Assembly (NCBI GenBank): GCA_965216755.1
Contig: CBDCGL010000011.1
Location: 2,496,001-2,560,000, forward strand
Source: Alphaproteobacteria bacterium
Lineage (GTDB): Bacteria; Pseudomonadota; Alphaproteobacteria; UBA7887
Direction of reading: 5' to 3'
Length of the DNA: 64,000 nt
In this document: positions 8,752-41,164 of the stretch, piece by piece
How the letters are laid out: each line of letters opens with the position of its first letter
How positions within the stretch are numbered: the stretch's first letter is position 1
Made by a program: the position numbers and the translations under genes
The notes under the pieces: model-generated
What the model saw: only the letters and a program-made list of their open reading frames with translations
Told to the model about the DNA's origin: nothing
Database searches by the model: none

Positions 8752-9609
8752 TCACGTGCCAGCGAAGAAGTCCAACAATGCCGCGGCGAGTTCCTCGGGC
8801 TTTTCCTCGGGAATAAAATGCCCTGCGCCGTCCACAACACCACCGCGCACGTCGCTTGCGACCCGTTGCATGGATTCCAAAGTCAGTCTGCGCCGGCCAA
8901 AGCTTTCGCCGCCGCCCAATGCCAGCACGGGTATGGTCAACTTGCCGGCGGCGATCGATTTTTGGTTGTCAACAATGTCCTGCGGAATGGCGCGGTAATA
9001 GGCGAGCCCGGCGCGCATGGCGCCAGGCGCAGCATAGTTTCGGGCGAATTCGTCGATTGCCGAATCAGGGATGATTCCAGGATGCGCAGCGAAATTGTTT
9101 AGGAACCACGTGATGTAGATTCTCTCGCGACCCTGGATCAGGGCCTCGGGCAAATCAAGCGTCCGATGAAACCCATGATGCCAGCGCCCCTGAGAGGTCG
9201 AAAACTGATCCGAGCCATCGCCCGGGATCATGACGTCGAGGATGGCGAGTTTGCGCACCGCCCGCCGATGGGCGGCGGCAAGCGCATAGGCCACCGGCCC
9301 GCCCCAATCGTGACCCACCAGATAAAACGACGTATGACCAAGCGTGTCGGACATCAGCTCCCACACATCTTCGGCGATGCGCGCCTTGTGGTAGCCGGTC
9401 GCCGGGCGCGATGATTGGCCGAGGCCGCGCAAGTCTGGCGCAATGACATGATAGCGTGCCGCAAGCATTGGCATGATCAACCGCCATTCGTACCAAGTCT
9501 GCGGAAATCCATGCAAGAGCACGACCGGTTCGCCGGAGCCGGCGGTTACATAATGCATGGTCATTTCAGACAATTTGGCATAGTGGTGCGTGAAGCTTGT
9601 CATGCTCAT
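8752..9609 (-). CDS. Epoxide hydrolase-like alpha/beta hydrolase
   Basis: HGFP oxyanion motif, GHDWG nucleophile Asp, GHFIPEE. Confidence 0.88.
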   Translation of the reverse strand: MSMTSFTHHYAKLSEMTMHYVTAGSGEPVVLLHGFPQTWYEWRLIMPMLAARYHVIAPDLRGLGQSSRPATGYHKARIAEDVWELMSDTLGHTSFYLVGHDWGGPVAYALAAAHRRAVRKLAILDVMIPGDGSDQFSTSQGRWHHGFHRTLDLPEALIQGRERIYITWFLNNFAAHPGIIPDSAIDEFARNYAAPGAMRAGLAYYRAIPQDIVDNQKSIAAGKLTIPVLALGGGESFGRRRLTLESMQRVASDVRGGVVDGAGHFIPEEKPEELAAALLDFFAGT

Positions 9610-12378: not shown

Positions 12379-13809
12379 TTACTTCGATACCCGCAGGTTC
12401 GACAGATCTTGGCCAATCGCCTCAAACACGTTTTGAAGCTCTGAATTTGATGGCGAGTCGAAGTAACGGTCCGAACCGCTGGCGCAAGTCTCGTAAAGAT
12501 CCTTCAAATCCTGCTCATCGCCGACTTGGAAGGTGATGGCATAGATGACGACTCCCGCTTCCTTCATCGCCATGCAGGTGTCGGTGAGCCGGGAATTCAA
12601 CTCCGCGCGCGACGAAGAGGTGGTCACCGGATCGACCAATTCGCCATCATCCGGATAGCCATAGGCGGTGTAATAGTCGTTGGAATAACCGGACCATTGA
12701 TTCCAACCGTCGGTCAGCAGGATGACGGCCTTGTCCATCAACGGTTCGTCGTACGGCAGGGGCAAATCGGCGGGCGTATCGCCGCCCCACAGGCCTTGCC
12801 AATCTGGTGACACAGTGCGCCAACCCCACGACATGCCGACATTACTCATAGTGCCGAAGCGGCGATAGGCCCCCATCGCGTCGATGGCATCCGTTACCGT
12901 CGATTTCTCCGCCGTCAACGGCAGGATCGGCGTCGGACAGGCCAGGTTGGGGCCGTTCGCATAGCTCGACGAGGTCTGGTAGGAATCGGTCTCGTTGTAG
13001 CTGCCCGGCGCCCACCAATTGTCGCCACCGGAAGCCCAGTGATAGGTCTCAAACAATCCGGCGCCTGACGGGACCGTGTCGTCCTGATCCATGCCAACGG
13101 CGCGCGCCTTCACGCAGCCTTTCCAACTCACCTGACTGGTGCTGTAGGAGCCTTCCTGCTCCCAGGTGTAATCGTCATAATCCGACAACCAGTCCTGGTA
13201 GTCATCGCCAACATTGACGACCGACGCGTAGGGCACCAAAGCGACCCAGAAATCGTCAACCGTTTCGCGTTCGCCGTACATGATATCCATCAGCAGGTGG
13301 GCGGCATCCCGCATGGCATCCATTTTGCCGCTCCATCGCATGGACCCGGTGTTGTCCATCACCAGGGCCAGCTCTAGCCCACGCATGCGCCGCGTGACCT
13401 CGGTCGACGCCGCAATCGTGATGTCTTCAAAACCCATCACCCGCATGAAGCTGGCGCCGACGGTGGCGTTGGCGGAAACGGTAATGACATCGCCGTCCCC
13501 GGAGAACGACACCTGCGGGGTCGACAACTCCGCGCCATACAATTCATCCGGAAAATTCGCGTTCATATACATCAGCACGTCTTGCTGCATTTCCGAGACC
13601 GTCGCGTTGACGCTCGCGCCGGCCGCCAGAGCGGCGGAATCAAGCGCCGTTGCCAGCCGGGAACGCACCAGATAGGCGCGTGCTGAATCCACCCCCAGGC
13701 CGACAAAGGCCACCAGGGGAATGATGGCAAAACCGATCATGATCAATGCGCCGCCGCGGCGATCACTGACGAGCCGCGACATTTCGCTTCGCAACCAGCT
13801 CAGTGCCAT
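12379..13809 (-). CDS. TadG-like pilus-associated vWA protein
   Basis: N-terminal DRRG-hydrophobic pseudopilin/Tad segment, ALDSAALA; MIDAS DNTGSM and ILLTDG. Confidence 0.85.
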   Translation of the reverse strand: MALSWLRSEMSRLVSDRRGGALIMIGFAIIPLVAFVGLGVDSARAYLVRSRLATALDSAALAAGASVNATVSEMQQDVLMYMNANFPDELYGAELSTPQVSFSGDGDVITVSANATVGASFMRVMGFEDITIAASTEVTRRMRGLELALVMDNTGSMRWSGKMDAMRDAAHLLMDIMYGERETVDDFWVALVPYASVVNVGDDYQDWLSDYDDYTWEQEGSYSTSQVSWKGCVKARAVGMDQDDTVPSGAGLFETYHWASGGDNWWAPGSYNETDSYQTSSSYANGPNLACPTPILPLTAEKSTVTDAIDAMGAYRRFGTMSNVGMSWGWRTVSPDWQGLWGGDTPADLPLPYDEPLMDKAVILLTDGWNQWSGYSNDYYTAYGYPDDGELVDPVTTSSSRAELNSRLTDTCMAMKEAGVVIYAITFQVGDEQDLKDLYETCASGSDRYFDSPSNSELQNVFEAIGQDLSNLRVSK

Positions 13810-16922: not shown

Positions 16923-17061
16923 GTGGGCGGCACCGCCATCGCACCGGTGCATTCGGCATAAACACAAATTGAACGACCGTGACATGACGCCATAGCCGGT
17001 ATCGTCCAAGATCACTGCGCGAAAGAATCCGAACGCGGATCGCTTTCCATGTCATGACTTC

Positions 17062-17089
17062 AGCCCCTCTCGCAAGAGGGGCTTTTTTT
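17062..17089 (+). terminator. Rho-independent terminator
   Basis: AGCCCCTCT-cgca-AGAGGGGCT followed by T-run. Confidence 0.8.
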
Positions 17090-17200
17090 GCCACCGATCC
17101 GCCGAGGCCCAGACATAGTGCGTGTGCACCACGACCGCTGCTGGGTCACGTGCTAATTCATAGAAAATTGCTAAAATTTTATGAGATGGAACCGAATTGC

Positions 17201-17389
17201 ATGCCTACATTCATCGCTTATGTCCGCGATCGCTCAAGCACCACATCGATTGAATATGCTCTGGTCGCGTCGCTGGTTGCTGTCGCGGGCATGGCCGCGT
17301 TCTCGGGCTTGGGCGCACAAATCCGGACCCTATATGCCGACATCAACGAGGCGTTGCAAAGGGCACTGATCGCCGCCGAAAATGGATAG
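17201..17389 (+). CDS. Flp family type IVb/c pilin (atypical cleavage site)
   Basis: TTSIEYALVASLVAVA Flp motif; Ser instead of Gly at -1. Confidence 0.7.
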   Translation: MPTFIAYVRDRSSTTSIEYALVASLVAVAGMAAFSGLGAQIRTLYADINEALQRALIAAENG

Positions 17390-17837: not shown

Positions 17838-18011
17838 ATGACCAAAGTTCTCGCCTTCTTGAATGACGAATCTGGTGCCACTGCCATCGAATACGGCCTG
17901 ATTGCCGCGTTGGTCTCTGTGGCCGCCATCGGCGCCCTGACGACCATGGGCAGCAGCCTGTCGGCCGTGTTTGGTACGGTTTCTGACAAGTTGGACGCCG
18001 CTACGCAGTAG
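17838..18011 (+). CDS. flp: Flp family pilin (57 aa)
   Basis: MTKVLAFLNDESG/ATAIEYGLIAALVSVAAIG canonical Flp; GGAG RBS; not in ORF track. Confidence 0.93.
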   Translation: MTKVLAFLNDESGATAIEYGLIAALVSVAAIGALTTMGSSLSAVFGTVSDKLDAATQ

Positions 18012-18256
18012 CGGGTCGGCCGCAAGTCGCCTTCGGGCGAACACCTCTTGACGGACCGGGTGGCGCGCCAGCGTCACCCGGTTTTTCGTTGGCCGCATTC
18101 TGCGTCTCGAAACCAAACGAGATTGTGGGCCGAAGTTGACAGCGGCATGGACCCATCCGATATGTCAGCACACGATCTGAAACCATCAACCAGCGGCAAG
18201 GGGCCCCCATGCGACCCGTAGACGCCCGATTTGCGCGGGTCAAACATACGCGGCGG

Positions 18257-19177
18257 ATGGGACTCTCCGCCGCTGGCGCCAGCGGTTGGTGGCCGACAAA
18301 TTTGGCCGGATTTGTCGTGACAGCCGGCCCGATCCTGGGTCTCGCCGGCCTGGTTCTGACCATGCTGGCGGCGCCGGTTCGGGCCGATTTTTTGACCGGT
18401 GTCGAGGCCGCCAACGAAGGCGACTACGAGATCGCGCTCACTGCGTTCGAGGAAGCCGCGGAGAGCGGCGATTTGCTTGCCCAGTACAACATCGCCGCGA
18501 TGTACCACGCCGGTCTCGGCGTGCCGCAGGATTACCTGAAAGCGCTGCGCTGGTACATGCGTGCGGTGCGTGGCGGCCTGCCGCCTGAGCTTTATAAGCT
18601 CGATGACGGAATGTTGGTGGCCCAGAATGCTGATGGCCGCTGGATTCCCGAAAGCCCCCTCCGCCGCGCCAAGGTCGCATCAGCACCCCAATCAAATCCT
18701 GTCGTCGCGCCGCCGGCGCTTGCCCGCAAACGCGCGGCCGAACCCGGTCCCAGAAGCGTGCCCGATCCGGACGTCGATCTCGCCGGCGCCGCCCCGTCAT
18801 TGCCGGCGGACATGGCGCGGCAAACAGCCCCGAACGGCGCCTTATCGGCCAGCACTGCGGCGCCGCCCGCCGAGATCCCACTTGGTAATATTGGTACCGG
18901 GCTGACGCCCGATCTGGCGCGCGCGCTTGAGGATGTGCTGGCGACCCCGCCGACCGAAGACCAGATATTGGAGATTCAGCGTATTTTGACCGTGCTCGGC
19001 TATGACGCTGGCCCCGCCGATGGTGTGGTTGGCCCGCGCACCAAGCAAGCTATCCAAAAGTTTGAGACTGACCTCGGGCTACGACCTTCGCGTGACCTCA
19101 CCGCGCGCCAACTGCGCAAGCTCATCGCCATGTCCTACGCGGAACGAGACCGCCGCGTGCGCGACAACCAACGCTAA
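18257..19177 (+). CDS. Sel1-repeat protein with C-terminal peptidoglycan-binding domain
   Basis: AQYNIAAMYHAGLGVPQDYLKALRWY; Pro/Ala linker; GYDAGPADGVVGPRTKQAIQKF; start uncertain. Confidence 0.8.
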   Translation: MGLSAAGASGWWPTNLAGFVVTAGPILGLAGLVLTMLAAPVRADFLTGVEAANEGDYEIALTAFEEAAESGDLLAQYNIAAMYHAGLGVPQDYLKALRWYMRAVRGGLPPELYKLDDGMLVAQNADGRWIPESPLRRAKVASAPQSNPVVAPPALARKRAAEPGPRSVPDPDVDLAGAAPSLPADMARQTAPNGALSASTAAPPAEIPLGNIGTGLTPDLARALEDVLATPPTEDQILEIQRILTVLGYDAGPADGVVGPRTKQAIQKFETDLGLRPSRDLTARQLRKLIAMSYAERDRRVRDNQR

Positions 19178-20003: not shown

Positions 20004-20423
20004 TCAATCACCAACGTCGTCCATATCGGCTTGACCAGAGATGCGGCGGCGGACATGCGACCATGAAACACCGATCGCCAGCACCGTCGCCAGCACAACC
20101 AAGGCCGCGTATGTAATCGCCGTTGGCTCGGTTAGGCTCAAAACCCCAATGTCGACCAACACCCATATCAGCGCGGCGAAGAAAGCGATCGCCAAGACCA
20201 GGCCGATCGGTCCGATCGAACGCCACGTGGCGCGCAGAAAAATGACATAGAGAATGAGCAAAGCGATGCCGGCAAGTGCCTTTAGCGGCAAATCGCCGGC
20301 ATCGGCATCGGTCACCCAATGGATAAAGGAATGGCCGGTCGGGTTAAATGTCGCGAACACCAGAACCAGAGCCACAACCCACCGCACCATGAACCCCGCC
20401 GACGAAAATCCCGTTCGTGTCAT
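20004..20423 (-). CDS. Small membrane protein (DUF6524-like)
   Basis: ATFNPTG, RATWRSIG, SWSHVRRRISGQ.D.DD; 4 TM. Confidence 0.75.
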   Translation of the reverse strand: MTRTGFSSAGFMVRWVVALVLVFATFNPTGHSFIHWVTDADAGDLPLKALAGIALLILYVIFLRATWRSIGPIGLVLAIAFFAALIWVLVDIGVLSLTEPTAITYAALVVLATVLAIGVSWSHVRRRISGQADMDDVGD

Positions 20424-20501
20424 TGTCGCTTCTGCGCCCCCCTTGTGAATTCCGTTGGCCGGCCACAATTCATCGCCGTTACGCCGGCATGGGCGGGGCA
20501 A

Positions 20502-21038
20502 TTACCACTGGCGGACGGGCCCCACGTCAATATGAACGAAATTCGATTTTGGGTAGAAACCGACGCCTCCACCCCGCAATGCCAAAGCGGTGTCGCGCAG
20601 ATCGACAAGCGCGCGCCCGGGCAAACGCACATCAACCGCTTGGCCGCGCAGATGATAGCTATCCTTCGCCACACCACTTGTCGTTCGGCGCAGCGCTTCG
20701 TTGGTTTGCACCGACCGATAGCCAGAGATCAGTTCAAATGGGTCTTGAGTTTCCAAGTCTTGCCGAAGAACATAAAGCAAATCCAATAGATTAGGGTCTA
20801 TCGTTTGCGCCTCGCCCGTACGATGGTCGCGCAACACCCAATCGACCACGTCCAAACCCGCCCGCAAATAGCGACCGCCGGCCCAATACACGATGTCCAC
20901 GCGGTCACCTGTGTGCACATTCAAGAACGCGATCGCACGCGACCCCTCGGTGTTGGCCTGGGCCGGCCGCGCCAAAGCCCCGGCCATGCCGAACAAACCA
21001 ACGCCAACAAAAACCCTCCGGTCGAGACCGTGGCCCAT
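20502..21038 (-). CDS. YcbK/MepK (DUF882, peptidase M15) murein endopeptidase
   Basis: Tat-like RR signal; LRDHRT, ISGYRS, SYH..GQAVD, FVHIDVG. Confidence 0.92.
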   Translation of the reverse strand: MGHGLDRRVFVGVGLFGMAGALARPAQANTEGSRAIAFLNVHTGDRVDIVYWAGGRYLRAGLDVVDWVLRDHRTGEAQTIDPNLLDLLYVLRQDLETQDPFELISGYRSVQTNEALRRTTSGVAKDSYHLRGQAVDVRLPGRALVDLRDTALALRGGGVGFYPKSNFVHIDVGPVRQW

Positions 21039-21392
21039 GGCACCCTCCCCATCACATTGTGTGACCGCGTTGTGCCGGTCACTGCCCTGTTTGTTGCGCG
21101 CCGCGTCGCCTTATGATGGCAATTTGGCGCCCGCGGCACCATATCGCCGTCACATGAATGTCGGCAAGAGGGCTCACCTGACGTGGCGCTGATTTTGTGA
21201 TCGCGACTTGGGACATTTCGAAACGGCGGCGCGGTGCCAGCCGCCATGTTTTCGAGAGGCAGGGGCTTGTTCGCGCGATGGCGCAACAGCACTAATAATG
21301 AGTTCGGCATATGGGGCGTTCATACTGTATGATTCGTCCGTGATGTTCGCGAAATCGAAACGATCGAAGCACCACGGCTCAGGGGGCGAAGC

Positions 21393-22343
21393 TTGGCAGG
21401 TCTGCTTGAAATGGTGACACGCGGCGTGTGCTGGGAGTCATTCGCGAATCGCGGCGCGGCGCGATGGTTGGCCGTACCGGTTTTGCTCTTGGGCACGCTG
21501 CCCGCGGTCGCGGCAGGCGCCGATGCCAATGACCTGATCGGCACCATGACGCTATACATCACATCGCAGGAGGAGACCCTGCTGGAGGTGGCTGAGGACA
21601 ACAACCTGGGCTTTCTTGAGCTTGTCGCCGCCAATCAAGGCATAGATCCTTGGCTTCCCGGCGATGGCACGATCGTTTTGCTGCCGACCGCGCATTTGCT
21701 GCCGAGCGATGTTCGCGATGGCATCGTCATCAATCTGGCGGATATGCGGCTCTATTATTTTCCAGAGGGCGCAGCGCCGCGTAGCTATCCCATTGGGATC
21801 GGTCGCGACGGCTGGGACACACCCGTTGGCATCACGGAGATCGTTGCAAAAAGGGAAAATCCAACCTGGGTGCCGACCGCAACGATGCGCGCGGCGCGGC
21901 CCGATCTACCGGACTCGGTGGGACCGGGACCAGACAATCCGCTCGGCCTGCACGCCATGAACATGGGTTGGCCCCACTATGTGATCCACGGCACCAACAA
22001 GCCGCGCGGCATTGGCCGCCGGGTCAGCTCCGGTTGCATACGGCTTTATCCTCAGGATATTGCCGAACTATTCGCCGCGGTCCCGATTGGCACGCCTGTA
22101 ACGGTCGTCAACGAACAAGCAAAGGTCGGCCGTGTGGGCGATGCCCTGTTCCTGGAAGTGCATCCCAATCTGGAACAAGCCGACCGTCTCGAGGAATCCG
22201 GACGGTTCGAGCTTGAGAGTGTGCCCGGCTTGCATAGCCACATAGCCAGCGCCGCCGATGGCATCGCCGCGGCGATCGATTGGCGGCTCGTTCAACGGGC
22301 TATCGACGAACGACGCGGCATTCCCATTCGTATTACCAGATAG
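21393..22343 (+). CDS. L,D-transpeptidase, ErfK/YcfS type with LysM-like N-domain
   Basis: AANQGIDPWLP, INLADMRLYYF, PGPDNPLG, IHGTN..GIGRRVSSGCIRL; start uncertain. Confidence 0.92.
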   Translation: MAGLLEMVTRGVCWESFANRGAARWLAVPVLLLGTLPAVAAGADANDLIGTMTLYITSQEETLLEVAEDNNLGFLELVAANQGIDPWLPGDGTIVLLPTAHLLPSDVRDGIVINLADMRLYYFPEGAAPRSYPIGIGRDGWDTPVGITEIVAKRENPTWVPTATMRAARPDLPDSVGPGPDNPLGLHAMNMGWPHYVIHGTNKPRGIGRRVSSGCIRLYPQDIAELFAAVPIGTPVTVVNEQAKVGRVGDALFLEVHPNLEQADRLEESGRFELESVPGLHSHIASAADGIAAAIDWRLVQRAIDERRGIPIRITR

Positions 22344-22428
22344 GACCCGCGCGAACCGATGGTGCCGCATCTCAAACGCGGCCCGCCGGCCCTTCGATAT
22401 CGATCATCCGATGTCTGTGGGCAAAGCC

Positions 22429-22527
22429 CGCAGCGCGATGTGCGTGTCCTGACGAAACCGAAGTTCGTAAGGTGCCTGGGGTCAGACGTGACGAACTTCG
22501 GTTTCGGGACACGCGCGTCGCGCTGCG
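22429..22527. repeat. Long imperfect palindrome
   Basis: CGAAACCGAAGTTCGT / ACGAACTTCGGTTTCG perfect 16-bp core extended by GTGTCC/GGACAC and CGCAGCGCGA/TCGCGCTGCG. Confidence 0.75.
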
Positions 22528-22598
22528 CTACCCTTCGTGTGGACCGCCGCGCCGGATCGCAAACAGAATTGATCCAATATTACCGGACACGGCTCTAG
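22516..22598. repeat. Degenerate half copy of the 170-bp CTAG-ended MITE-like element
   Basis: Aligns by eye with the right half of 31315-31484 (…ACAGAATTGATCCAATATTACCGGACACGGCTCTAG). Confidence 0.8.
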
Positions 22599-22939
22599 TT
22601 CTTGCGCAAACCTTCACGATAAATGCGATCGGCGCGTTGGGCTGCGGCCCGGGCTTCCTCCGCGGATGCATCGGCCGCGGCCTGCGCGGCCTGCGCGGCA
22701 GACGACGCGCTGCGCGCTTCGGCAGCGGCGGAGTCGGCCGAAGATTGGGCCGCTTGGGCCGCCTGCAACGCTCGATTGGCCGTGTCGGTATTGCTGTTCA
22801 CCTGACTACGCAAGGCTTCGATTTCGCCGCGCAGGGTCTGTTCCATCGTGTCCATACGCTCAGTGCTGGCGCAACCGGCCACAGCCAAGAGCGGAATCGC
22901 GGTGGCCAAAATCAAAATACGTTTGTTGTGCGCGTACAT
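22595..22939 (-). CDS. Lpp/OprI-like alanine-zipper lipoprotein
   Basis: Lipobox VAGC; coiled-coil plus Ala zipper; C-terminus ADRIYREGLRKN. Confidence 0.85.
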   Translation of the reverse strand: MYAHNKRILILATAIPLLAVAGCASTERMDTMEQTLRGEIEALRSQVNSNTDTANRALQAAQAAQSSADSAAAEARSASSAAQAAQAAADASAEEARAAAQRADRIYREGLRKN

Positions 22940-23127
22940 TGTGTCTCCCTAATACTTCGCCAATGTTGACGATGTTCACTGCGAACAAAACCTAGCGCCG
23001 GCGAATCCAAATCGCAATCATGCGGGAGTCGCGAACAAGGCGCAAACAACAACCAAGACCTTATCACACTGTCAACTATGAAACGCAACCGATAGGATCG
23101 ACATGGCTGCCCCCCCACCGGCCATTT

Positions 23128-23658
23128 TTAAGGCAACAGCTCTATCGGCGTGCCATCGTCGATCATCTGCCAAATCAAATCCATTTCTTCATTCGTGACG
23201 GCAATGCACCCATTGGTCCAGTCGCGGGCAACATGCACGGCGCCCAATGTCTCAAGACCATTCGGCAGCCCGTGAATCATGATTGCCTCGCCGGGGTCGC
23301 GCCCGGCCAACGCCGCGTGACGGGCATCGGCCCGGTTGGGATAGGACACATGTATCGACCGGTAGAAGTCGCTGTCTTCCTTGCGCCAGTCCAGCACATA
23401 ACGTCCTTCGGGCGTTCGTCCATCGCCGCGATACCGCTTGTGCCCCATCGGGTTCGGCCCCAGCGCCACCTGGAACGTCTTCAACGGAAACCCGGCACGA
23501 AACAAGACCATTTCTCGCAAGCTCTTATAAACGACGACCCGATCCGCCTTCGGCAGGCTGCCAAGCCGGGACACCAAAATGTCGTCCGCCAGTGCTGTCG
23601 ACAAGACCACAAACGGGCCAAAAACAAGCAAAAAAAGTGACAGGCTCCGGATCTTCAT
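23128..23658 (-). CDS. YkuD-family protein, YafK/DpaA-like
   Basis: GHKRYRGDGRTPEG, SYPN, IMIHG, DWTNGCIAV. Confidence 0.88.
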   Translation of the reverse strand: MKIRSLSLFLLVFGPFVVLSTALADDILVSRLGSLPKADRVVVYKSLREMVLFRAGFPLKTFQVALGPNPMGHKRYRGDGRTPEGRYVLDWRKEDSDFYRSIHVSYPNRADARHAALAGRDPGEAIMIHGLPNGLETLGAVHVARDWTNGCIAVTNEEMDLIWQMIDDGTPIELLP

Positions 23659-23784: not shown

Positions 23785-24615
23785 TCAACCGGTGACCAGC
23801 AATGAACTTTGATCTTGGTTCAAGATCTCGGCGACCGCCGCGGCGTGATCGGTGTCACGCAACCATTGTTTGCAAACCGCCAAAACACCGCCGGGGGCCG
23901 CATGAAGGGCGTCGGCAACCGCCGCCCAATCGTCGGCGATCGCGCGCAGCTCGATTTCGACGCCAGTTCGTTCGGTATGTGTCGTGGCGGCGCGCCGCGC
24001 CGCCGTCAACAAATCCTCACCACCGGAAACCAACACCGTCACCGCACCATCCACCGCGCGTGCAAACCGCACCGCCACATCCAAAAGCCGATCGCTTTCC
24101 GGCGTATCGGTGAAAAGCGTAAAAATCCGCCGCCGCTGGATCCCGCCACGCGCCAGGCACAGCAAAGCGGACGGCGCCTGTCCAACCAGGCGTGGCGCAT
24201 CCCGCCCCAAAGCCGCGCGGTCAACGACAATAAGATCAGCGTCCCCCGCATGCGCAACCACATCACGACCCAGGCGGCCACGCACGACCCGGGTCGACGC
24301 GGGGACCGCGGATGCGGAGGCCACGGCGACCAACGATCGTTCCAAGTCGGCGATGGCGCGGCGCCAGGCCCGGGCAATCATCTGTTCGTCGATAGCGCGA
24401 CTGATCGGCCCGCATCCGGTGACCTTCGTAAACGGCAACGCCGCCATGTTCATCACATCGATGTCCTCAAGAATCACCGCTTCCAGCTCGGCTGCGAGCT
24501 GCGCGGCCAGACGCGAGGCCCGTTGCACCGCCGCGCGGTCCCGCGCCGCGGCATCGACGGCCAACACGACGCGCTGGAACTGCCGCGTGGCCAAGCGCTC
24601 AACAGGGCCGGTCAT
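23785..24615 (-). CDS. Universal stress protein-like (tandem USP domains)
   Basis: VVLAVD start, LEAVILED...LPF; translationally coupled to Lon-like gene. Confidence 0.7.
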   Translation of the reverse strand: MTGPVERLATRQFQRVVLAVDAAARDRAAVQRASRLAAQLAAELEAVILEDIDVMNMAALPFTKVTGCGPISRAIDEQMIARAWRRAIADLERSLVAVASASAVPASTRVVRGRLGRDVVAHAGDADLIVVDRAALGRDAPRLVGQAPSALLCLARGGIQRRRIFTLFTDTPESDRLLDVAVRFARAVDGAVTVLVSGGEDLLTAARRAATTHTERTGVEIELRAIADDWAAVADALHAAPGGVLAVCKQWLRDTDHAAAVAEILNQDQSSLLVTG

Positions 24616-27083
24616 GCGGTCTTCTCGTCGTTGGACTCGACATTTGCCATACGGCCGTAGCGCAACCGCTGTTCAAAAAAGCCGTGCAGGCGGTCGGCGA
24701 CCCGTCGATTGACCGAGCCGTCGGGATAGTGGCCATTCGCGTCGGCCTCACCCGCGGGCGCCCCTGTCAGCACGGCAATACCTTGGTCGATGGTCCGAAT
24801 CGGGAAAACGTGAAACTGCCCGGCCGCCGCCGCGTCCACGACATCCCGGCGCAGCATCAAATGCTTGACGTTGGCCTCAGGTATCAAGACCCCGTGGCTG
24901 CCATCCAGACCGCGGACGCGGCAAAGGTCATAGAATCCTTCGATCTTTTCATTGACACCACCGATAGCTTGCACTTCACCGCGCTGATTGACCGACCCGG
25001 TCACCGCAAGTGATTGCTGAATCGGCAACCCGGACAGCGCCGACAACAGCGCATAGAGCTCAGCCGACGAGGCGCTATCACCGTCGACACCGCCATAGGA
25101 CTGCTCAAAAACCAAGCTTGCTGCGAGTGATAGGGGCTGATCGCTGGCATAGCGCGCGGCCAGAAAGTTGGACAGAATCAAAACGCCCTTCGAATGGAGT
25201 GGCCCGCCCAGTTCGACCTCGCGTTCGATATCGACGACTTGGCCGCGCCCCATGCGCACGCGCGCTGTAATACGGCTCGGCCGACCGAAGGCGAATCCAC
25301 CCATTTGCAAGACCGATAGGCCGTTGATCTGGCCAATCTTGGCACCATCGGTGTCAATCATGATGGTACCGCGCTCGGTTTGTTCCTGCATGCGCTCACG
25401 AATGCGATCAGAACGGTGAATCGCGGCGTCAATCGCACCCTGAATGTCTGCGGTCTCGATCAATTTACTGCCGCGCTGCTCCGCGCCATGGTCGGCTTCC
25501 GCCAACAAATCAACCACCGCGCGCATGCGCGTCGAAAGCTTTTCCGCGTCGCCCGCAAGACGCGCGCTTTCTTCGATGACCAAGCCGACCGCGCCAGCAT
25601 TCAGCGGTCGCAAGCCGGCAGCGCGCGCCTGACTTGCGATTTGACGCGCATACAATTGCGTCGATTCAGCCGACCGCGCCATTTGATCGTCAAAATCAAC
25701 TGCGACTTTAAACAATGTACTAAATTCTGGGTCATACTGCGCCAACAGATAGTACAGCATCGGGTCGCCCAAAAGTATGACCTTGACCCGCAGCGGCACA
25801 TAGGTCGGTTCCAGACTGACCGTGCTGACAACGCTGAATATCTGGCCGAGCGATTCGATACGGATCTCGCTTGATACCAATGCCTGCTTCAAACCTTCCC
25901 AAGCATAGGCTTGGGTGAGGATTTTGCGCGCGTCCAACAGCAGGTAGCCACCGTTGGCCTTGTGCAAGGCGCCTGGTCTAATCAGATTGAAATCCGTCGA
26001 AAGCGCGCCCATCTGCGCCATGTGCTCGATGCGGCCGACCAGGTTTTGGTAGCTCGGGTTGGGTTCGTAAACGACCGGCGCGCCGTTTTCCGGATCGTGC
26101 CCAACCAACAGATTGACCCGGTAGCGTCGCAAGATGCCGTTACTGGCCTGATCGGCACCTTGCGGCCCACTTGCCTGTTGTATAGACGCCCCGTCTTGCG
26201 GCGCCGCCTGCGCATCGTCCGACATGCGAAACGCCATCGCATTGTCGATGATATCGGCTTGTAGCTGGTCCAAATAGGTCGCGACTTCCGCGATGTCACC
26301 GTGGTGCCCGCGCAATTCGTCGATCAAGTGGCCGACCGCAGCGCCCGTGACCTCCCGGTTCAAAGCGCGCATTTTTTCGCGGCCTTCGCGTTGCCATTGG
26401 GGAAATTTCGCGGCCACCGCCTGCAGATCATCCTGAAGTTCGGCGATTTCCTTGGCCACTCGTTCGCGTTCGGACTCAGGCAACTGGGCAAAATCCTTCG
26501 GACCGACCACCTCGCCATCCTTGACCGGTGCAAACCCCATCCCAAGGGGCATGCGGACCAATGCGATGTTGCGTTCTTGCGCGCGTTGCTCAATGTCGCG
26601 CAACGCCGTGTCGTGCCGCTCTTTGACCTCTTCCTCTATGACCTGAGCGCGGGCGCGATATTCATCAGTCTGAAAGGCGGTGCGAATGGCGGCTTTGATT
26701 TCGTCGACCAGCCGTTCCATATCCGCCTGCAGCCGCGTTCCGCGACCGGCCGGTAACGCGATCGCGCGTGGCCGCCGCGGATCCGCAAAGTTATGGACAT
26801 AGACCCAATCGTCCGGCGCCGATTCTTTGGCGGCGCGGGCGTCCAACGTCCGCCGCACCACGTCGCGCATACCGGTCTCCTGTGGCCCAAGCGCAAAGAG
26901 ATTGAAACCCTCATGCTTGATGCTGATCCCGAATCCCAAGGCCTCGACCGCACGGTCTTGCCCGATGACGCTTTCGATCGGTTGCAATTCGTCGGTGGTC
27001 GCAAAGTCGAGCAATGCAGGATCAGGCGCCGTGCGCAATTGCGCGGCGGACAAGGCTGTCGAGATTTCAGGCGCGACGGGCAA
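24612..27083 (-). CDS. Lon-like ATP-dependent protease (AAA_32/LonB-type, S16)
   Basis: IGQDRA, PGALHKANGGYL, FEQSYGGVDGDSAS, GGVNEKIEG; likely TTG start at 27083 after GGAGG. Confidence 0.9.
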   Translation of the reverse strand: MPVAPEISTALSAAQLRTAPDPALLDFATTDELQPIESVIGQDRAVEALGFGISIKHEGFNLFALGPQETGMRDVVRRTLDARAAKESAPDDWVYVHNFADPRRPRAIALPAGRGTRLQADMERLVDEIKAAIRTAFQTDEYRARAQVIEEEVKERHDTALRDIEQRAQERNIALVRMPLGMGFAPVKDGEVVGPKDFAQLPESERERVAKEIAELQDDLQAVAAKFPQWQREGREKMRALNREVTGAAVGHLIDELRGHHGDIAEVATYLDQLQADIIDNAMAFRMSDDAQAAPQDGASIQQASGPQGADQASNGILRRYRVNLLVGHDPENGAPVVYEPNPSYQNLVGRIEHMAQMGALSTDFNLIRPGALHKANGGYLLLDARKILTQAYAWEGLKQALVSSEIRIESLGQIFSVVSTVSLEPTYVPLRVKVILLGDPMLYYLLAQYDPEFSTLFKVAVDFDDQMARSAESTQLYARQIASQARAAGLRPLNAGAVGLVIEESARLAGDAEKLSTRMRAVVDLLAEADHGAEQRGSKLIETADIQGAIDAAIHRSDRIRERMQEQTERGTIMIDTDGAKIGQINGLSVLQMGGFAFGRPSRITARVRMGRGQVVDIEREVELGGPLHSKGVLILSNFLAARYASDQPLSLAASLVFEQSYGGVDGDSASSAELYALLSALSGLPIQQSLAVTGSVNQRGEVQAIGGVNEKIEGFYDLCRVRGLDGSHGVLIPEANVKHLMLRRDVVDAAAAGQFHVFPIRTIDQGIAVLTGAPAGEADANGHYPDGSVNRRVADRLHGFFEQRLRYGRMANVESNDEKTA

Positions 27084-27160
27084 AGCTATGGCCTCCCATG
27101 AGCAAGCCTGCCATAGAAGACGGCGCGGGGTCGCGGTGTCAACCTCAACGCCAAGGTGCG

Positions 27161-27330
27161 CTAGAGCAGTGTCCGACAATATTGAATCAATTCTGTTCGC
27201 GGCCCGGCTTGGCGATCCACGCGAAGGGCGGCGCAGCGCGATGCTGGCGCATCGGGCAAGCCGCCCGACAAAGTGGACACCCGCCGGGCCGCGAACAGAA
27301 TTGATTCAATATTGTCGGACACTGCTCTAG
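27161..27330. mobile_element. 170-bp MITE-like palindromic element, copy A
   Basis: Perfect 48-bp terminal inverted repeats beginning and ending CTAG; no coding capacity; second copy at 31315. Confidence 0.85.
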
Positions 27331-28162: not shown

Positions 28163-28978
28163 CTAGTGCGACATTACGATCGGCACGGTCATGTGGCGCA
28201 GCAGATCGCGCGTGACACCGCCCAGCACCAACTCGCGGACTCGCGAATGGCCATAGGCGCCCATGACGATGAGATCCGCGCCCGCATCACTGACCGCATT
28301 GAGCAATTCATCGGCGACGTCAATCTCTGGCGTCAGACTGCGCCGCACGTCGACCTTCAAGCCGTGATGGGCCAAGTGGGTCGCAATATCGGCGCCGGCG
28401 ATATGGTCTTCGTCGGGTGGATTGACCGACTGCACGATCACGGTATCCGCCTTCTGCAAAATGGGTAATGCGTCGTGAACCGCGCGTGTCGCTTCGCGGC
28501 TGCTGTTCCACGCAACCATGACCGTTTTGCCCATGGTCGCTTGCGGCGCGATGCGTGGCACGACCAGTACCGGCCGTCCACACGCCATAACCAGTTCGTC
28601 GGGCAGAGCCCCTTCCCCGGCCTCGACATCTTCATCGGGCTGAGAAACAACGACCAAGTCGGCATACTGGCCGTGCGTCGCCAGAAGTCCAATCGGTTCA
28701 CCTTCGACCCGGCGCCATTCCGCGGTGACACCATGGCGCGCCACGGTCTCGTTGAAAGCGCTCTCAACGTCGCGCGCGCGTTCATAAAATTGGGCACGCG
28801 TTTGGGCGATCAAGTCGCCGCCGATCTGCGCCGCAACGAAACCGGGCAGCTCCGGGTAATGCAACGCATACAAGGCCGTCAACCGGGCCTCGTGGCGTTG
28901 CGCGAGCCCAATGGCGACATCAAGTCGTTGCGCGTTGTGACTGTCTTCACTCGCGTGCACCAAAATATCTTTGATCAC
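28163..28978 (-). CDS. Universal stress protein (UspA family)
   Basis: IKDILVH, AWNSSREATRA, DLIVMGAYGHSR.RE..LGGVT; GTG start after GGAGG. Confidence 0.92.
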   Translation of the reverse strand: MIKDILVHASEDSHNAQRLDVAIGLAQRHEARLTALYALHYPELPGFVAAQIGGDLIAQTRAQFYERARDVESAFNETVARHGVTAEWRRVEGEPIGLLATHGQYADLVVVSQPDEDVEAGEGALPDELVMACGRPVLVVPRIAPQATMGKTVMVAWNSSREATRAVHDALPILQKADTVIVQSVNPPDEDHIAGADIATHLAHHGLKVDVRRSLTPEIDVADELLNAVSDAGADLIVMGAYGHSRVRELVLGGVTRDLLRHMTVPIVMSH

Positions 28979-29029
28979 TTCGTCGCCTCCTTGCCGTTGC
29001 ACCCCGCGGCACCAGCAGTCGTTTTGTTT

Positions 29030-38494: not shown

Positions 38495-41164
38495 GTGACA
38501 GACGATCCGACGAGACGGGAAACGCCTCCTCAAGTCGTTCGGCGCGCTGACTACGCGCCACCACGTCACTATGTGGAGACCGTCGACCTCGATTTCACGC
38601 TCGACGAATTGCGGACCCGCGTGCGCGCGCAGATGCGCATACGGCGTGGCCCCACCGCCGACGTCAATGCGCAACCCATGCATTTGGACGGGCAGGCGCT
38701 CGAGCTGGTGTCGGTCGCCATTGACGGCCGCCCGCTAGGCGCAGAACGCTTTGTGCAAGACGAGGCCGGTCTGACCATTTTTAATGTGCCGCCGGCCTTC
38801 ACGCTTGATATCGAAACGATCATCAACCCCTGCGACAACACCAAGCTAGAGGGCCTTTACCTTTCGAACGGCACATTCTGTACACAATGTGAAGCCGAGG
38901 GTTTCCGCCATATTACCTATTTTCCGGACCGGCCCGACGTTATGGCCGTCTACACCACGACAATTCGCGCCGACCGGGCGCGCGTTCCCGTGCTTCTGTC
39001 CAACGGAAATCTTGTCGCCAACGGTGACGATGCGGACGGCGCCCATTTCGCCATGTGGCACGATCCGTTTCCGAAGCCGTCCTATCTGTTCGCCCTGGTG
39101 GCCGGCGATCTAGCGGTTGCCGAGGACGCCTTTGTGACCCAGTCGGGGCGGCGCGTGGACCTGCGCCTGTTCGTCGAGCATGGCAATCAAGGCCGTTGCG
39201 CCTTTGCGCTCGACGCGCTCAAGAAGGCGATGCGTTGGGATGAGCAGCGTTATGGCCGGGAATACGACCTCGACGTCTTCAATATCGTCGCGGTGAGCGC
39301 CTTCAACATGGGCGCGATGGAAAACAAGAGCCTCAACATTTTCAACGACAAATACATACTGGCCGATCCGGAGACCGCGACAGACACGGACTACGCTCAC
39401 ATCGAAAGCGTTGTCGCCCACGAGTATTTCCACAACTGGACCGGTAATCGGGTCACTTGTCGCGACTGGTTTCAGCTGAGCCTGAAAGAGGGCTTGACGG
39501 TTTTCCGGGACCAACAGTTTTCATCCGATATACGCTCGGCCGCGGCTCAGCGCATATCGGATGTGCGCGTCCTACGCGCGCGCCAATTTCCCGAGGATGC
39601 CGGTCCGCTGGCCCATCCGGTGCGGCCGGATAGCTATATCGAGATCAACAATTTCTACACAGCAACCGTTTATGACAAGGGCGCCGAAGTCATCCGCATG
39701 ATGCACACGATGCTGGGCGAATCAGGATTTCGGCGCGGCATGGACCTTTATTTCGAGCGCCATGACGGCGACGCGGTCACCTGCGACGATTTTGTCGCCG
39801 CCATGGAGGCCGCCAATGACGTTGACTTGACGCAATTCCGCCTTTGGTATGCACAGGCTGGCACGCCAACGGTTCATGTCGATTGCGCCTACGACAGCGA
39901 TTCGAAATGCGCGACACTCACACTCGATCAATCATGTTCGCCGACGCCTGGCCAACCTGACAAAGCACCAATGGTGATTCCGTTGGCGCTCGGCCTTCTC
40001 GACCAAGACGGCGCACCGATCCCATTGTGTCTGGAGGGCCAGTCGGGGCCGTCTGGAACAACGGGCATCCTACCGCTGACCGAGCGGAGCCATGTCTATC
40101 GCTTTGTCGCCGTCGAGTCGGAACCCGTATTGTCAATAAATCGCGGCTTCGCCGCGCCGATCCGCACCGTGACCAGCCGCAGTCGCGCCGACGCAGCACT
40201 GTTGATGGCCCACGACACGGATCCCTTCAACCGCTGGGAAGCCGGCCAGACCTTGGCGACCGAACTGCTGATCGAGGGCGCCGAGTCCATCCAAGCAGGC
40301 CGCGCGCCGACCAGCGACCGTCGCTTTGTCGCGGCCTTAGGTTTGACCCTGCAAGACGAGCGCATCGAAAAAGCCTTACTCGCGCAAACAATGGTTCTGC
40401 CGACCGAATCCTATATTGCCGAGCAGATGGATGTCGCCGATCCGGACGCCATCCATCGCGCACGTCAGCATCTACGCCGCGCGATCGCGGATGCGTTGCG
40501 TGACCGGCTGGTGTCTGTATATCGCGAGAACCACGGTAACGCGCCCTATCAACCTGACGCCGCCAGCGCTGGACGGCGCGCCTTGAAGAACGCGGCCTTG
40601 TCTTATTTGGCGTTGCTCGACGAAGATCAAGACATGCAGGCAATTGTGACGGCGCAATATCGAAACGCCAACAACATGACCGATCGCATGGCCGCCTTGC
40701 ACGCGCTTGCCGACATGACCAGCGATGCCCGCGACCAGGCGCTAGCCGATTTTTACGCGCGCTATCGTGACAATCCGTTGGTGATCGACAAGTGGTTCAC
40801 AGTCCAGGCGCTGTCATCGCGTAGCGATACGCTTGATGCCGTCAAGGGCCTGGTCGGTCATGAAGCGTTCGCGATCACCAACCCAAACCGGGTGCGCGCC
40901 CTGATCGGCGCCTTCGTGACCGGCAATCCGGGGCGGTTTCATGCCGCCGACGGCGCCGGCTATGACTTTTTTGCCGAACAGTTGCTGGTGCTTGATCCCA
41001 TCAACGCGCAAGTCGCCGCACGGCTGCTGACCGCTTTAAGCCGCTGGCAAAAACTCGACCCCGCCCGGCAAGAAAAGGCCAAAGGCGCCTTGGCGCGGAT
41101 CTTGGCCCGACCCGGTTTGTCGCGGGACGTGTTCGAGATCGCCTCGAAGTCTCTCGCCAATTAG
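38495..41164 (+). CDS. pepN: Aminopeptidase N
   Basis: TQCEAEGFR, GAMEN, HEYFHNW...KEG, NPNRVRAL. Confidence 0.96.
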   Translation: MTDDPTRRETPPQVVRRADYAPPRHYVETVDLDFTLDELRTRVRAQMRIRRGPTADVNAQPMHLDGQALELVSVAIDGRPLGAERFVQDEAGLTIFNVPPAFTLDIETIINPCDNTKLEGLYLSNGTFCTQCEAEGFRHITYFPDRPDVMAVYTTTIRADRARVPVLLSNGNLVANGDDADGAHFAMWHDPFPKPSYLFALVAGDLAVAEDAFVTQSGRRVDLRLFVEHGNQGRCAFALDALKKAMRWDEQRYGREYDLDVFNIVAVSAFNMGAMENKSLNIFNDKYILADPETATDTDYAHIESVVAHEYFHNWTGNRVTCRDWFQLSLKEGLTVFRDQQFSSDIRSAAAQRISDVRVLRARQFPEDAGPLAHPVRPDSYIEINNFYTATVYDKGAEVIRMMHTMLGESGFRRGMDLYFERHDGDAVTCDDFVAAMEAANDVDLTQFRLWYAQAGTPTVHVDCAYDSDSKCATLTLDQSCSPTPGQPDKAPMVIPLALGLLDQDGAPIPLCLEGQSGPSGTTGILPLTERSHVYRFVAVESEPVLSINRGFAAPIRTVTSRSRADAALLMAHDTDPFNRWEAGQTLATELLIEGAESIQAGRAPTSDRRFVAALGLTLQDERIEKALLAQTMVLPTESYIAEQMDVADPDAIHRARQHLRRAIADALRDRLVSVYRENHGNAPYQPDAASAGRRALKNAALSYLALLDEDQDMQAIVTAQYRNANNMTDRMAALHALADMTSDARDQALADFYARYRDNPLVIDKWFTVQALSSRSDTLDAVKGLVGHEAFAITNPNRVRALIGAFVTGNPGRFHAADGAGYDFFAEQLLVLDPINAQVAARLLTALSRWQKLDPARQEKAKGALARILARPGLSRDVFEIASKSLAN

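Follow-up and report, generated by a model that had tools for sequence, protein, structure and literature searches.

The 64,000-nucleotide stretch of DNA analysed here (the window: contig CBDCGL010000011.1, positions 2,496,001 to 2,560,000) carries, at positions 20502-23658, a cluster of genes for an ErfK/LdtA-E-type L,D-transpeptidase (LDT), an alanine-zipper lipoprotein, a small DpaA-like YkuD protein and the endopeptidase MepK. Homology and conserved gene neighbourhood make it probable, in our judgement, that this locus encodes a covalent tether from outer membrane to peptidoglycan, of the Lpp/OprI type, together with the enzymes that handle it. Across related genomes what is conserved is a core of the LDT gene and a small lipoprotein gene, to which a DpaA-like gene is often added, and not the set of four genes as a fixed unit.

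The list of open reading frames places mepK at 20502-21038 (minus strand, 178 amino acids), the LDT gene at 21393-22343 (plus strand, 316 amino acids), the lipoprotein gene at 22595-22939 (minus strand, 114 amino acids) and the small YkuD gene at 23128-23658 (minus strand, 176 amino acids). These are exactly the coordinates at which an initial annotation had placed the four clustered genes, and the motifs that it had read in them (VSSGC, the lipobox and ...REGLRKN) are correct. The mepK gene is divergent from the LDT gene; the lipoprotein gene is convergent with the LDT gene across a gap of 251 bp; and the small YkuD gene lies 188 bp upstream of the lipoprotein gene. With a DUF6524 gene added, the region 20004-23658 comprises five genes.

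To place this arrangement among other genomes, contigs representing one genome per species were scanned with an alignment of the LDT, which yielded 563 relatives, and the best 80 loci (46-57% identity) were used. The genome of the window itself is absent from these 80 loci, which come mostly from alphaproteobacterial metagenome-assembled genomes (MAGs), seven of them labelled Myxococcota or delta; taxonomic labels of MAGs are taken as given. One carrier, at L005, is the cultured Virgifigura deserti SYSU D60014. Lipoprotein candidates were screened independently of family membership, by requiring a signal peptide together with a lipobox and 40-135 residues in the mature protein. In the 231 kb of sequence lying within 1.5 kb of the LDT gene, 62 of 100 lipobox candidates end in Lys, and these are spread over 61 of the 80 loci, whereas beyond 1.5 kb (725 kb) none of 85 candidates does so (Fisher p = 6e-23). 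The clustering of Lys-terminal lipoproteins with the LDT thus exceeds chance. A lipoprotein-family profile applied to the same neighbourhoods gave a concordant picture: all 40 matches with E <= 1e-6 end in Lys. Hand inspection adds a lipoprotein at each of the loci L001 and L060, as well as a frameshifted copy in L014. In L014 the lipoprotein gene (9036-9503, minus strand) lies between the LDT and MepK genes, with its signal peptide and its ...DRAMAQGLRK end in different frames; it is either an assembly error or a pseudogene. Two loci, L007 and L008, offer less than 800 bp of sequence downstream of the LDT gene.

A lipoprotein gene accompanies the LDT gene in 61 of the 80 loci, a DpaA-like gene is adjacent in 25 and MepK is adjacent in only four, and for this reason we do not regard the four genes as a fixed unit. 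The synteny that the initial annotation had put forward as a check therefore holds for the LDT-lipoprotein pair and, in part, for the DpaA-like gene; it does not extend to the complete four-gene module. Where a DpaA-like gene occurs, it is linked to a lipoprotein gene in 21 of 25 cases by the automated screen, to which L001 and the frameshifted L014 were added by hand. Eight gene arrangements hold a lipoprotein gene, a DpaA-like gene or MepK beside the LDT gene. The order found in the window, LDT> <Lipo <sYkuD, is shared with two MAGs of the Kiloniellaceae; all four genes occur together in two loci, in a different order (<sYkuD LDT> <Lipo <MepK); and two further loci fall short of the full set only by the lipoprotein call of the automated screen. 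The seven loci labelled Myxococcota or delta proteobacterium (L028, L043, L048, L052, L065, L069 and L077) have the order Lipo> sYkuD> LDT>, and in a quick tree their LDTs, except that of L065, fall in one clade. The module may extend beyond the Alphaproteobacteria, or these labels may be wrong.

The neighbouring lipoproteins belong to two classes. In 43 of 61 the protein is of the alanine-zipper type, with 58-92 mature residues (median 71). The other 18 are shorter, with 41-53 mature residues (35-53 across the loci listed below), and have no coiled coil; none of the 18 matches a Pfam family. The short proteins have in common the motif PYAxERTA and a tail AERVFxxxQxK, and their genes lie 200-900 bp downstream of the LDT gene on the opposite strand. 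They are found at loci L015, L018, L030, L039-L041, L046, L047, L055, L059-L061, L067, L071-L074, L078 and L079. The LDTs paired with the short class are themselves related: 17 of 18 fall in one Micavibrio-like clade with 100/99 support. Alignment of the two lipoprotein classes by hhalign joined their signal peptides alone, so the classes are not thereby shown to be homologous. Across all 61 proteins the tail is the best-conserved part: position -10 is Ala in 50 of them, and Arg at -8 and Phe at -6 each occur in 49. An Arg-Lys end, present in 35 of the 61, is also found in Lpp and OprI (PMC10434034).

The lipoprotein of the window is preceded by an AGGGAG Shine-Dalgarno sequence 7 nt upstream of its start. 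It has a signal peptide at residues 1-22 and the lipobox LAVAG-C23 with Ala24 at position +2, so that the mature length is 92 residues, as had been estimated. A single continuous heptad register runs from M29 to I106, which bears out the long tether proposed from the sequence; 20 of its 26 a/d positions are hydrophobic, and from residue 54 onwards nearly all of them are Ala. The protein ends in ...DRIYREGLRKN, with Lys113 penultimate and Asn114 last. In alignments of its family the Cys of the lipobox is invariant and the Ala columns are conserved at a spacing of 3-4. The protein passes the cutoff of the OprI-type Pfam family PF11839 Alanine_zipper (27.3 bits vs 23.1), a family matched by 34 of its 37 aligned relatives (E <= 0.01), and all 37 relatives match the NCBIfam Lpp/OprI model NF040598 at E <= 0.01 (best 2e-15); only one of the 37 matches the Pfam LPP family PF04728. 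By these profile matches the lipoprotein is a member of the OprI-type alanine-zipper family. Searches of the PDB with its family profile gave marginal coiled-coil matches, led by Lpp variants (E = 7e-4), and searches with single sequences gave nothing useful. The family profile can be aligned as far as the C-terminus with 9tz4_A, a 59-residue 'Major outer membrane lipoprotein'.

Close relatives of this lipoprotein are rare in protein databases: 19 representatives including itself at E <= 1e-3 among 1.84 billion. Protein searches returned few matches (three besides itself in one search), and the closest relatives are either nameless or labelled 'hypothetical protein'. Of 21 aligned database proteins, 16 end in ...DR(I/M/V)(F/Y)RxSLxK with Lys last. 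The breadth of the family was sampled only beside LDT relatives.

The LDT has a Sec signal and a catalytic Cys215 in SSGCIR (...RRVSSGCIRLY), with the Arg at Cys+2 that is typical of transpeptidases; its motif H...S-x-G-C-h-R reads HGTNKPRGIGRRVSSGCIR. The database prediction of this protein starts at 21411 (310 amino acids), which is the probable start. It matches Pfam YkuD PF03734 with 94 bits (1e-26) and matches the NCBIfam models of the LdtE/LdtB/LdtA type over their full length, the best being LdtE with 184 bits. As it misses the cutoff of each of these equivalog models, we treat it as the equivalog of no single E. coli enzyme. A maximum-likelihood tree separates E. coli LdtA/B/C/E from all 81 other LDTs by a 100/100 branch, and on this ground the 81 alphaproteobacterial-type enzymes are co-orthologues of the four; the position of the window LDT among these 81 rows is not settled by the tree. 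The motif S/T-x-G-C-h-R is present in at least 75 of the 80 related LDTs. In the PDB the best matches are 9tyw_A (322 amino acids, 4e-65) and then 4lzh. The codes 9tyw_A and 9tz4_A are neighbouring accessions and may represent a solved LDT-lipoprotein pair.

The small YkuD protein likewise carries a Sec signal, and its Cys151 lies in TNGCIA, with Ala at Cys+2; it matches Pfam YkuD with 67.6 bits (2e-18). Its best E. coli match is DpaA (29% identity over 110 amino acids, E = 3e-12), DpaA is also its best PDB match, and DpaA is the best NCBIfam model for all 24 members of its family. The family profile finds 8IKR, the structure of E. coli DpaA (PMC10653827), as its best PDB match (4.8e-15). Motif and residue criteria for DpaA were taken from PMC8263019, PMC10434034 and PMC10653827. 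The motif T-x-G-C-h-A is present in 24 of the 25 small YkuD proteins adjacent to an LDT; of the DpaA residues, K83, C143 and A145 occur in all 24 family members, and M133 in 21 of these 24. L,D-carboxypeptidases are described as carrying, at the M133 position, the Trp of the D-Ala pocket (PMC10653827); Pgp2 has WIHG at this place.

MepK, an M15 peptidoglycan L,D-endopeptidase, passes the NCBIfam equivalog NF053624 (199.4 bits vs 185), matches Pfam Peptidase_M15_2 with 176 bits (5e-52) and shares 43.8% identity with the E. coli enzyme over 176 amino acids, its full length. It has a Tat-like RR signal (DRRVFVG) and the M15 metal-ligand motifs, namely H-x6-D in SYHLRGQAVD, and FVHID. Immediately downstream of mepK, on the same strand, lies the gene for a DUF6524 membrane protein (20004-20501, minus strand; Pfam 7e-54); from this position it may be co-transcribed with mepK. 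Its membership of the module is uncertain, and in none of the 80 related loci does a DUF6524 gene lie beside the LDT gene.

The host was examined through two proteins of the window. Named relatives of the LDT, for which the best non-self identity in the protein database is 61%, are mostly from Alphaproteobacteria (Kiloniellales, Rhodospirillales, Geminicoccaceae, Tistrella and Inquilinus), with one that carries the label Planctomycetota. For aminopeptidase N (38495-41164), identity reaches no more than 63%, with proteins that bear the names Rhodospirillales, Ferrovibrio, Rhodospirillaceae and Telmatospirillum. On the names and identities of these relatives, the host is an alphaproteobacterium of the Rhodospirillales/Kiloniellales type, as had been supposed, and not a gammaproteobacterium. 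It is without a close sequenced relative in the collections searched. No rRNA, tRNA or Rfam features were found in the window.

These assignments suggest how the system could work. The 114-residue precursor would be exported, lipidated at Cys23 and delivered to the outer membrane, into its inner leaflet; we propose outer-membrane sorting because the +2 residue is Ala and not Asp, following the E. coli rule. The mature 92 residues would form a parallel alanine-zipper coiled coil, a trimer by analogy with Lpp, in which the approximately 78 residues in one heptad register would give a rod of about 115 Å, as compared with about 85 Å for Lpp. Through Cys215 of its SxGChR motif the periplasmic LDT would form an acyl-enzyme with the L-centre of meso-diaminopimelate (meso-DAP) of a tetrapeptide stem, and would then move the stem onto Lys113, at its epsilon-amine; this Lys belongs to the conserved tail (D/E)R(I/V)(F/Y)-x4-(R)K. 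The small YkuD protein, with its SxGChA motif and Met in place of the D-Ala-pocket Trp, would hydrolyse the DAP-Lys bond as DpaA does, and would thereby make tethering reversible. MepK would cut the 3-3 DAP-DAP cross-links that LDT chemistry also produces, and is best seen as a loose partner rather than as part of the core.

The closest described system is that of Pseudomonas aeruginosa, in which LdtPae2, an enzyme of this LDT lineage, anchors OprI, and the YafK-like LdtPae3 is assigned its release (PMC10434034). The window shares with it the Alanine_zipper family PF11839, the combination of an LDT of the ErfK/YbiS/YcfS/YnhG lineage carrying SxGChR with a YafK-like SxGChA paralogue (PMC10434034), and, in the 35 relatives noted above, the Arg-Lys end of OprI. 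It differs in its alphaproteobacterial host, in a longer lipoprotein that ends in Lys-Asn, in a distinct tail (DRIFxxxLRK), and in the clustering of all the genes; the hydrolase of the window is, moreover, about 70 residues shorter than DpaA. The overall logic, a lipidated coiled coil with Lys at the C-terminus, an LDT that anchors it, an amidase that releases it and an endopeptidase for 3-3 bonds, is also that of E. coli Lpp with LdtA/B/C, DpaA and MepK. Both adjacencies of the window have E. coli counterparts: in K-12, lpp converges on ldtE across a gap of 63 bp (251 bp here), and mepK, orthologous to that of the window at 44% identity and above the equivalog cutoff, follows ldtD. In E. coli, however, the genes as a whole are scattered, and the lipoprotein belongs to PF04728.

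Other tethering systems are more distant. Omp25 and Omp2b of Brucella and AopA and AopB of Agrobacterium are of the same alphaproteobacterial class as the host and are attached to meso-DAP in an LDT-dependent manner (PMC11527210, PMC8263019); these substrates are beta-barrels joined by N-terminal residues, whereas here the conserved partner is a small lipoprotein whose Lys is C-terminal. LimB of Coxiella burnetii is an outer-membrane lipoprotein joined to meso-DAP by a Lys that is not C-terminal (PMC8263019, PMC12729407); it is described as Coxiella-specific and as attached via Lys21 near the N-terminus, and we liken it to the present case by this description and not by sequence. Two further candidates were set aside. 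Rhodospirillum PapS, an OmpA-domain lipoprotein according to PMC11369160, is unrelated, and Legionella Lpg1810 was dropped as a precedent for a penultimate Lys, the review in question giving both 'Lys-Thr' and 'Thr-Lys-meso-DAP', which makes the residue order ambiguous (PMC12729407).

Several observations weigh against a covalent tether as we propose it. For the lipoprotein, the initial annotation had drawn a likeness to Lpp, of which the OprI-type alanine zipper stands; the protein has no match to PF04728 at E <= 0.01, scores 37.6 bits against the NF040598 cutoff of 43, and is aligned with E. coli Lpp by hhalign (92% probability) mainly over the signal peptide and the first heptads. Its Lys is penultimate, unlike the terminal Lys of 61 of 61 LDT-neighbour lipoproteins, and the Lys-Asn end recurs among its relatives only in P0006; in the sources consulted (PMC8263019, PMC12729407), LimB is the sole precedent for attachment through a non-terminal Lys. 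For the LDT, identities to E. coli LdtC, LdtB, LdtA and LdtE are about equal (40, 39, 38 and 37% over about 280 amino acids by blastp), and according to PMC10434034 no sequence signature parts anchoring LDTs from cross-linking ones. For the hydrolase, the score against the NCBIfam DpaA model NF040599 is 39.3 bits vs a cutoff of 365, the C-terminal tail present in DpaA is missing, and a 14-residue insertion precedes the Cys. Finally, MepK seldom adjoins the LDT gene, and the automated screen finds no partner gene at all in 16 of the 80 loci, although L060, one of these, has a short lipoprotein by hand inspection.

Adjacency itself is no proof of an enzyme-substrate pair, because LdtE, encoded next to lpp in E. 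coli, is a 3-3 cross-linker and does not anchor Lpp (PMC8263019). The LDT of the window could in the same way be mainly a 3-3 cross-linker, with the lipoprotein free or bound non-covalently and the adjacency reflecting inherited gene order. We regard this as unlikely, though it accords with several facts: the convergence of lpp with a cross-linker gene in E. coli (PMC8263019), the presence of the gene for MepK, a 3-3 endopeptidase, divergent from the window LDT and next to ldtD in E. coli, the rank of LdtE as the best NCBIfam model for the LDT, and the absence of a terminal Lys from the window lipoprotein. It accords poorly with the finding that, in two lipoprotein classes of unrelated structure, conservation is strongest at the terminal Lys and in the tail motif, which is hard to account for if the tail is not recognised. 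The co-occurring hydrolase gene is, moreover, DpaA-like and not carboxypeptidase-like, and by blastp the LDT is slightly nearer LdtC and LdtB than LdtE. It is very unlikely, in our view, that the LDT instead anchors beta-barrel outer-membrane proteins by their N-termini, as in Brucella, Agrobacterium and Coxiella, and that the lipoprotein has another role. The Alphaproteobacteria studied do tether outer-membrane proteins via LDTs and are stated to be without Lpp (PMC11527210, PMC8263019, 10.1101/2021.05.31.446380), but no beta-barrel gene is conserved beside the LDT among the 80 loci, the conserved neighbour being a Lys-terminal lipoprotein; the cases studied belong to the Hyphomicrobiales, and just one of the 80 closest loci is labelled Rhizobium. 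The two kinds of anchoring are, in addition, not mutually exclusive.

A separate question concerns the small YkuD protein, which might be an L,D-carboxypeptidase like Csd6, Pgp2 and Bd1075, trimming tetrapeptides to tripeptides and so controlling the donor supply of the LDT. We find this doubtful. The family profile also matches Bd1075 (5e-8), Pgp2 (2e-7) and Csd6 (1.6e-5), the score is far under the DpaA cutoff, and a carboxypeptidase role has been proposed for DpaA-like proteins in organisms without Lpp (PMC8263019); DpaA nevertheless heads the profile matches with a margin of seven orders of magnitude, most family members have Met where the D-Ala-pocket Trp would stand by the criterion of PMC10653827, and the gene travels with the lipoprotein gene in most of its occurrences. 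Taken together, the observation made in the initial annotation was confirmed and its interpretation is partly supported: family memberships and gene pairing speak for a tethering system of the kind that it had described, the LdtE precedent limits what adjacency can establish, and covalent attachment, release and an effect on periplasm width are what we infer from the genes.

Beyond the coding regions, mepK and the divergent LDT gene are separated by 354 bp (21039-21392), a distance that grows to 372 bp if the ATG at 21411 is taken as the start; this intergenic region contains a weak sigma-70-like match at 21304-21333 on the plus strand; promoter and terminator scans of the window gave matches no commoner than in shuffles. 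The convergent region between the LDT and lipoprotein genes (22344-22594) holds a long hairpin at about 22450-22525 and a repeat copy at 22564-22588. It folds at -129.5 kcal/mol (z = -7.2) and is probably a bidirectional terminator or an element like the repetitive extragenic palindromic (REP) sequences. The repeat has a 25-nt core found at gene ends, with five matches in the window vs none expected: it stands alone at 22564-22588 and as inverted pairs about 125 bp apart at 27171-27195/27296-27320 and 31325-31349/31450-31474. It looks like an intergenic element of the REP type or of the miniature inverted-repeat transposable element (MITE) type.

Upstream of the locus lie genes for a TadE/G-like protein (12379-13809), Flp pilins (the end of the open reading frame 17054-17389, and 17838-18011) and a protein that combines Sel1 repeats with a PG_binding_1 domain (18209-19177). 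Downstream, the gene for a Usp-like protein (23785-24615) overlaps that for a LonC-type AAA protease (24612-27179), followed in the region to 31289 by genes for another Usp protein (28163-29002) and for the enzymes tryptophan 2,3-dioxygenase and kynureninase. Usp-like and LonC-like genes lie beside the LDT gene in none of the 80 loci.

Published surveys confine Lpp to four gammaproteobacterial orders and have Alphaproteobacteria tether their envelope via beta-barrels (10.1101/2021.05.31.446380, PMC8263019, PMC11527210; reviewed in PMC12729407); as described there, they used Pfam PF04728 alone as query. Pfam and NCBIfam models already reach the lipoprotein, LDT, YkuD and MepK proteins considered here, and in our literature searches we came upon no account of a lipoprotein-LDT pair of this kind from Alphaproteobacteria. 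Our results suggest that a group thought to be without Braun-type tethers may have them. More tentatively, and as a possibility to which we would not give even odds, the LDT and a Lys-terminal small lipoprotein could form an old and widespread covalent tether in many Alphaproteobacteria, built to two designs with a shared recognition tail, the length of the tether setting the periplasm width by lineage. Its carriers may include Rhodospirillales, Kiloniellales, Geminicoccaceae, Micavibrio-like lineages and some Myxococcota-labelled MAGs. The designs may be an alanine-zipper rod of 58-92 residues and a peptide of 35-53 residues without a coiled coil, with the tail (D/E)R(I/V)F-x4-(R)K in common; the effect of length may be tuned by the dedicated DpaA-like releasing enzyme. 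The pair has its gene order in common with E. coli ldtE-lpp. If this reading holds, Braun-type tethering would be no recent invention of a few gammaproteobacterial orders.

If the LDT-lipoprotein pairs described here do act as tethers, a link of the Braun/OprI type is in use in a large part of the Alphaproteobacteria, and the history of envelope tethering would have to be rewritten. The range of lengths that these lipoproteins show in nature, from 35 to 92 mature residues, would offer a direct handle on the relation of tether length to periplasm width, and the conserved tail would provide a concrete recognition motif for lipoprotein-anchoring LDTs, which have so far been inseparable by sequence from cross-linking ones.

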